Shown here: positions 41,023-41,262 of the stretch, piece after piece | How positions within the stretch are numbered: the stretch's first letter is position 1 | How the letters are laid out: each line of letters begins with the position of its first letter | Assembly: GCF_003334385.1 (NCBI RefSeq) | Contig: NZ_QOWN01000039.1 | DNA length: 41,409 bases | Source of the DNA: Escherichia coli | GTDB taxonomy: Bacteria > Pseudomonadota > Gammaproteobacteria > Enterobacterales > Enterobacteriaceae | Reading direction: 5' to 3' (one strand) | Notes under the pieces: model-generated | What the model was told of the DNA's origin: nothing | What the model saw: only the letters and a program-made list of their open reading frames with translations | Databases searched by the model: none | Translations under genes and position numbers: made by a program

Positions 41023-41262
41023 TATAATCCCTTGTGACGTAAAAACTGCAAAACAAAAGTCCTACGCAGGAATTATTTACGTTTTACGAGAACCCTTCAA
41101 TATGAATTAAATTACGGCATTAAAAATTAGAAAAAAGCCTGACAAATGAAGCATTTTAAAAACAGAAACATTCATATTTAAAATGTTAAATTGAATTGAT
41201 ATTTTAAATATGAATAATTTATTCGTTCTGACAGTACGAATAAGATATGCCGTCAACAAATG
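41023..41262 (-). promoter_or_regulatory. Strongly AT-rich chiA upstream/promoter region (candidate nucleoid-protein silencing region), including inverted repeat TTATTCGT-(9)-ACGAATAA at 41219..41243
   Basis: About 240 bp of marked AT-richness directly upstream of the chiA start codon; A/T tracts and palindromes. Confidence 0.5.

Follow-up and report, generated by a model that had tools for sequence, protein, structure and literature searches.

The AT-rich promoter region of the cryptic chitinase gene chiA of Escherichia coli, a probable target of H-NS silencing

What keeps the chitinase gene chiA of E. coli silent, and is that silence carried by the overall base composition of the DNA in front of the gene or by a discrete element within it? 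A sequence-only reading of this locus had proposed that the roughly 240 bp upstream of chiA form a strongly AT-rich, H-NS-silenced promoter containing phased A/T tracts and an inverted repeat. On the support of published genetics, we consider it very probable that window positions 41023–41262 represent the promoter and upstream regulatory region of chiA, and that this region is silenced by H-NS.

The interval between chiA and tufA

The window (the whole stretch of DNA analysed here, 41,409 nt of contig NZ_QOWN01000039.1) corresponds to the E. coli rpsJ–gsp–bfr–bfd–chiA–tufA region. Its final 510 bases are 97–100% identical to E. coli chromosomes, with chiA and tuf annotated under the match; the RefSeq product name of chiA is either 'bifunctional chitinase/lysozyme' or 'endochitinase'. 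The MG1655 counterparts are chiA (b3338) and tufA (b3339), both genes lie on the minus strand, and the tufA stop codon is found at 41318–41316. The interval and the features that define it are as follows:

38329–41022, minus strand: coding sequence of chiA, the regulated gene (897 aa; from the open reading frame listing)
41023–41262, minus strand: AT-rich chiA regulatory region, in which ~160 bp of further upstream DNA precede the core promoter and 5' UTR (27.5% GC; single copy)
41023–41065, minus strand: 5' UTR of chiA, 43 nt, with the Shine-Dalgarno sequence AAGGGA at 41033–41028 and the transcription start at 41065 (mapped from the published start)
41072–41100, minus strand: core promoter of chiA, with the -35 hexamer TTGAAG at 41100–41095, a 17-bp spacer and the -10 hexamer AATAAT at 41077–41072 (from a promoter scan)
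41263–41290, minus strand: intrinsic terminator of tufA, which bounds the AT-rich region (12-bp stem with 6 G-C pairs, and a T run)

Given the start of the chiA coding sequence and the position of the tufA terminator, 41023–41262 therefore comprises all of the DNA between the chiA start codon and that terminator. The earlier description of this interval as DNA upstream of chiA holds for ~160 bp of it, but the interval also includes the 43-nt 5' UTR and the core promoter. The MG1655 RefSeq record, in which the interval spans NC_000913.3 positions 3469854–3470093, contains no RNA or regulatory feature annotation in this region.

The transcription start was placed by converting published coordinates. 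In NC_000913.3, chiA ends at 3469853, and we take the offset between versions.2 and.3 of this record to be 1978 nt at chiA. The chiA transcription start was previously mapped at NC_000913.2 position 3467918 and was confirmed by 5'-RACE (PMC3950696). Combining this published start with the offset and the chiA coordinates, we therefore place the start at window position 41065, which gives a leader of 43 nt before the ATG. As a cross-check of the offset, we used a SELEX peak at 3467930 that was placed by its authors in the chiA–tufA spacer (PMC5493296). The -10 hexamer, which like the -35 hexamer was found independently by the promoter scan, ends 7 nt before the mapped start. The peak in the chiA–tufA spacer was obtained by genomic SELEX with RpoS holoenzyme, RNA polymerase binding there in vitro without other factors (PMC5493296); since no additional factor is needed for binding, the chiA promoter appears to be intrinsically competent, and its silence would need a repressor.

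Three promoter-like hexamer pairs were also seen on the plus strand at window 41155–41218, directed from chiA toward the tufA terminator. Together with the hairpin of the previously noted inverted repeat and with the terminator, they could give rise to a transcript of ~65–100 nt, for which neither annotation nor Rfam provided support. Spurious promoters are expected in DNA this AT-rich. The tufA terminator hairpin itself reads as a stem followed by a short T run on the plus strand too, and may act bidirectionally.

On the other side of chiA, the bfd–chiA spacer (window 38161–38328) is AT-rich as well (33% GC) and contains two repeats able to form hairpins, AATGGGCTAC at 38263 and GGCGATAC at 38300, which likely represent the chiA terminator region. 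A sequence apparently resembling a Fur box was noticed upstream of bfd.

Base composition and silencing by H-NS

That the DNA upstream of chiA is unusually AT-rich was borne out by windowed GC content: 41023–41262 has 27.5% GC, compared with 49.5% for the whole window, a level to which no more than 0.16% of all 240-bp windows fall. The lowest 240-bp value, 23.7%, is reached at 40984–41223, indicating that the AT-rich tract extends slightly into the first chiA codons. GC content stays below 40% without a break from 41062 to 41261 (40-bp windows), the AT-richest core being 41160–41219 with 13% GC (60-bp steps), and TpA steps occur in the region at twice the window rate. The other intergenic regions of the window have 42–45% GC. 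Besides the chiA region, only one stretch of the 41 kb does not exceed 33% GC:

26568–26746, no strand assigned: divergent gspA/gspC promoter, an AT-rich sibling island belonging to the same cryptic secretion system (22.9% GC)

The two AT-richest stretches of the window are thus exactly the chiA and gspA/gspC promoters. The chiA coding sequence has ~50% GC, and we therefore regard the tract as an AT-rich regulatory island rather than as part of a classic AT-rich foreign gene.

The proposal that chiA is H-NS-silenced and cryptic, together with the gsp genes, agrees both with the coincidence of these two stretches with the two promoters and with published genetics (PMC3950696, PMC5797941). Repression of chiA by H-NS is attributed to Francetic 2000 (Mol Microbiol 35:1506), as cited in PMC3950696. 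By qRT-PCR, chiA expression in a Δhns stpA mutant was as high as with constitutive BglJ (PMC3950696); moreover, a chiA promoter-lacZ fusion was activated by BglJ-RcsB, and chiA is among ten BglJ-RcsB-activated loci (PMC3950696, Salscheider et al. 2014). A BglJ-RcsB box at chiA was not found in that study, and mutating a candidate ~150 bp upstream of the start left activation unaffected (PMC3950696); activation may therefore be indirect or occur by anti-silencing. In addition, chiA has been described as 'another H-NS silenced gene'; the gspC-O secreton, itself repressed by H-NS, exports its product, and the gspA/gspC promoter is both H-NS-repressed and SlyA-bound (PMC5797941). H-NS silencing of the chiA promoter is already known, and the promoter is an ordinary example of it.

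The high-affinity H-NS motif has been published as tCGATAAATT (Lang et al. 2007; PMC2094087). Allowing up to 2 mismatches, we found no site for this motif in 41023–41262 and four sites at or beside the gspA/gspC promoter (26650 to 26843), while the window as a whole contains 42 sites, compared with 40.5 expected. This nucleation motif is common in H-NS-silenced promoters, where it is not obligatory.

From general knowledge of H-NS, silencing of chiA could be envisaged as follows. A sigma-70-type promoter with its start at 41065 is embedded in ~200 bp of DNA with 13–35% GC, reaching from the tufA terminator to the first chiA codons. H-NS, with StpA, would polymerise on this AT-rich tract with its many TpA steps, nucleation of the filament presumably being set by overall composition and not by a specific motif, and the filament would occlude or trap RNA polymerase, leaving chiA cryptic under laboratory conditions. 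Silencing would parallel that of the gspA/gspC promoter, which is just as AT-rich and belongs to the secreton exporting ChiA. It is lifted by loss of H-NS/StpA or by the activator BglJ-RcsB, which may act as an anti-silencer.

The A/T tracts had also been described as phased, and this was true only locally. Ten homopolymeric stretches of A or T, each 4 nt or longer, occur in the region. In a Fourier power spectrum of AA/TT, assessed against 1000 dinucleotide-preserving shuffles, no peak was present at 10–11 bp; the best period, 11.5 bp, was equalled by 7% of shuffles within the 10–11.5 bp band and by 21% when every tested period is considered. Intrinsic curvature produced by A-tracts in helical phase frequently accompanies H-NS-silenced promoters, and it was predicted here with a wedge model (its parameters reportedly being those of Bolshoy et al. 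1991) that gave the expected results on synthetic controls with phased and unphased A-tracts. Near 41043 and 41133, curvature peaks locally in this model at values that rank no lower than the 99th percentile of the window, and these two predicted bends coincide with two groups of tracts:

41041–41058, no strand assigned: A5/A4/A4 tract cluster in the 5' UTR, with a predicted local bend at about +22 (model only)
41122–41136, no strand assigned: A5-TTAG-A6 tract pair, with a predicted local bend at about -68 (model only; unexceptional for the composition)

The maximum curvature was equalled by 20% of composition-matched shuffles, and the regional mean is the same as the shuffle mean. What stands of the phasing claim are these two local groupings; region-wide phasing was not seen, and curvature remains within the range of the shuffles.

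Inverted repeats within the region

Two inverted repeats lie upstream of the core promoter. The first had been pointed out in the sequence-only reading, which overlooked both the second and the mapped promoter:

41219–41243, no strand assigned: inverted repeat TTATTCGT-9 nt-ACGAATAA, at -154 to -178, with arms at 41219–41226 and 41236–41243
41170–41215, no strand assigned: 46-bp AT-only palindrome ATTCATATTTAAAAT-16 nt-ATTTTAAATATGAAT, at -105 to -150, with perfect 15-bp arms

The first repeat is present as sequence, but it is not distinctive. Of dinucleotide-preserving shuffles of the region, 21% contained a perfect inverted repeat with arms of 8 bp or more and a loop no longer than 20 nt; the share falls to 5% when an arm must include two or more G/C. 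We rejected the repeat as a significant feature on the basis of this chance expectation. Its RNA fold is weak (-7.6 kcal/mol, z = -1.9), and in E. coli B-type haplotypes one of its arm positions is changed without compensation.

The palindrome, on the other hand, has non-random arms: none of 1000 shuffles reached 15 bp, and most other E. coli haplotypes have 17-bp arms around a 12-bp spacer. No part of the chiA upstream region is AT-richer than this palindrome, which is found once in each genome. As RNA, the chiA strand forms a 16-bp AU stem (-12.7 kcal/mol, z = -3.7), and the opposite strand a 20-bp stem with two G·U pairs. A literature search retrieved no discussion of the sequence motifs of this region, and the palindrome is the only element in it that lacks an explanation. 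It might be a discrete cis element, acting as an H-NS nucleation point, as a supercoiling-sensitive cruciform, or as a site for BglJ-RcsB or another anti-silencer, a role that we regard as unlikely.

A related reading, which would be compatible with H-NS silencing, gives the main control of chiA not to bulk composition but to a specific dimeric factor (a NagC-like GlcNAc/chitobiose regulator, or BglJ-RcsB) for which one or both repeats would serve as operators. The palindrome, being far beyond chance and having even longer arms in most other haplotypes, speaks for such an operator, as does the activation of chiA by BglJ-RcsB with no box found (PMC3950696). The distribution of variable positions among nine E. 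coli haplotypes, which are 96–100% identical and are not independent samples, also bears on it:

Core promoter: 0 of 35 positions variable (nine haplotypes)
5' UTR: 1 of 43 positions variable (nine haplotypes)
Palindrome arms: 2 of 30 positions variable (nine haplotypes)
8-bp inverted repeat: 1 of 25 positions variable (nine haplotypes)
Remaining upstream DNA: 18 of 107 positions variable (nine haplotypes)

The promoter and UTR are more constrained than the remaining upstream DNA (1/78 vs 18/107, p = 0.0004). The repeats are less polymorphic than that DNA as well (3/55 vs 18/107), if only marginally so (Fisher p = 0.049), a comparison weakened by the lack of independence of the nine haplotypes; moreover, the polymorphisms in the arms are uncompensated.

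A link between NagC/Mlc operators and chitin breakdown would fit biologically, and the half-sites of the 8-bp repeat, TTATTCG/CGAATAA, resemble NagC half-sites such as AATTCG...CGAAA. However, NagC/Mlc operators are 23-bp quasi-palindromes with TT and AA at ±5,6, an arrangement that the 8-bp repeat does not have: its TT and AA are 15 nt apart, whereas the distance in NagC operators is an invariant 9, and on this ground we rejected the repeat as a NagC operator. Using a NagC matrix built from ten published operators, we likewise rejected the presence of a NagC/Mlc operator anywhere in the spacer: the best score was 11.2, a value that 15% of composition-matched shuffles attain, whereas the ten operators themselves score 16.6–24.3. 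The IHF consensus WATCAANNNNTTR has no match in the chiA region. ArgR, EvgA, RcsAB, CpxR and PhoP boxes were rejected in an informal comparison by eye, in which spacings were off by at least one. These sub-threshold scores and incorrect spacings, the ineffective mutation of the candidate BglJ-RcsB motif ~150 bp upstream (PMC3950696), and the lack of both repeats in a diverged relative (see below) argue against an operator, and we consider it improbable that the repeats exert the main control over chiA.

In the 5' end of gspC (window 26836–26858), we noticed a NagC-like 23-mer, GATTATTTTTAATGTGAATTATT, that does have TT and AA at ±5,6. Its matrix score of 16.1 falls inside the leave-one-out range of the ten NagC operators (11.0–21.9) and is reached by 1.1% of composition-matched shuffles. 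This sequence hints at a possible GlcNAc-responsive input to the secreton that exports ChiA.

The repeats might instead act at the RNA level. The tufA gene is very highly expressed, and in RNA reading through from it, three consecutive hairpins (formed by the terminator, by the 8-bp stem, and by the 16-bp AU stem that precedes GUUUCUGUUUUU) would function as back-up terminators or insulators that shield chiA from transcription of the str operon. Consistent with this, precisely these three hairpins are obtained when the 148 nt of RNA that follow tufA are folded (-44.5 kcal/mol, z = -7.3), and the large hairpin is followed by a U-rich run. However, the z-score derives mostly from the canonical tufA terminator. 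The AU stem contains a single G-C pair, and so it is not called by the terminator scan, which searched for a G+C-rich stem with a T run and called only 41263–41290; the 8-bp repeat has no T run. In addition, the U run is broken in other haplotypes (TTTTT to TTTTA), no covariation was seen among the nine E. coli haplotypes, and the hairpin is missing in the diverged relative. No Rfam family reached its gathering score, the best match having 20.9 bits against a gathering score of 50, and all matches ride on the terminator hairpin. We consider an RNA-level role of the repeats very unlikely, and silencing by H-NS remains our preferred reading of the region.

Conservation, loss and comparison with known systems

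Of 5426 complete E. coli genomes, 3164 (58%) carry the 240-bp interval, while ~42% lack chiA and the region. In chiA-less genomes, homology stops exactly at window 41262 (query position 363), and immediately after the tufA terminator come bfd-bfr and a truncated prepilin peptidase gene, chiA and gspA-M being missing. The remnant of the prepilin peptidase gene (gspO) measures 468 bp and adjoins rpsJ; by visual comparison, bfd-bfr of the chiA-less loci (L002 4663-6052, and L003) is clearly diverged from its counterpart in window 24440–41262. This arrangement suggests an old two-haplotype polymorphism in which the cryptic system was lost. Since each genome contains the region only once and no phage sequence matched it, its sole 'plasmid' match being a 4.9-Mb record that is evidently a chromosome, we rejected the possibility that it is a mobile or dispersed repeat.

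Two strains with altered chiA loci were observed. In E. coli KFu022 (L013 748-1445), the AT-rich promoter of chiA is interrupted by an IS1A element, all that is retained of the region is its distal 41 bp, and the chiA annotation records a missing N-terminus. NEBExpress, an E. coli B derivative (L007), has a shorter chiA homologue (2061 nt) that is annotated only as 'carbohydrate-binding protein', and its chiA upstream region, with 95.4% identity, is the most divergent haplotype seen.

A scan of a genome collection returned two loci, one of which, from Enterobacteriaceae bacterium UBA5654, was informative. Its ChiA is 73% identical, and its genes have the same order, tufA-terminator-chiA-bfr-gspL/K. 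The region upstream of UBA5654 chiA has 27–28.5% GC; by blastn, no similarity to the E. coli chiA upstream region was detected, the alignment of the two being patchy only, and neither inverted repeat is present. From these sequence comparisons, we conclude that low GC content upstream of chiA has been maintained through complete sequence turnover, and that the palindrome is specific to the Escherichia lineage. The tufA-chiA-bfr-gsp arrangement is probably old and was probably lost by chiA-less strains, loss rather than gain being indicated by the same gene order in UBA5654 together with the gspO remnant in chiA-less strains. The tufA terminator stem of UBA5654 (L006 3639-3664) differs from that of E. 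coli by a compensatory double change, from GGGCGC/GCGCCC to GGGTGC/GCACCC.

That the low GC content is merely a passive product of biased mutation and weakened selection at a cryptic locus that is decaying and often lost, with no regulatory role of its own, would fit the absence of chiA and gspA-M from ~42% of complete genomes, the IS1 insertion in the promoter of one strain and the upstream DNA being the most polymorphic part of the spacer, but is extremely improbable given the 42–45% GC of the other intergenic regions of the window, the extreme composition kept by UBA5654, the nearly invariant core promoter and UTR, and the H-NS-dependent repression found by published genetics (PMC3950696).

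The chiA promoter is a published case of an H-NS-silenced, cryptic secreted enzyme that is co-regulated with its type II secretion system. To this, the present analysis adds a silencing tract that would be defined by composition and conserved in a diverged relative without sequence conservation; the tract has neither the textbook nucleation motif nor significant A-tract phasing, and a non-random palindrome lies inside it. It also adds that the whole chiA unit is missing from ~42% of sequenced E. coli genomes. The composition, motif, palindrome and absence data could guide mapping of the relief of chiA silencing by BglJ-RcsB.

Among BglJ-RcsB-activated promoters, which include bgl and leuO, chiA belongs by its activation, its start having been confirmed by 5'-RACE, but it is a locus at which a box was neither found nor predicted (PMC3950696). 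Compared with the H-NS/StpA-silenced cryptic promoters of K-12 (bgl, proU, gspA/gspC, leuO, yjjQ-bglJ), the chiA region differs in having no close match to tCGATAAATT and an ordinary coding sequence of ~50% GC, and the chiA locus seems to be ancestral and often lost, not recently acquired. In bgl and proU, there are also downstream silencers. With all of these promoters, however, chiA shares an extended AT-rich tract that covers a competent sigma-70 promoter and continues upstream of it, silence in the wild type, and expression in hns (stpA) mutants.
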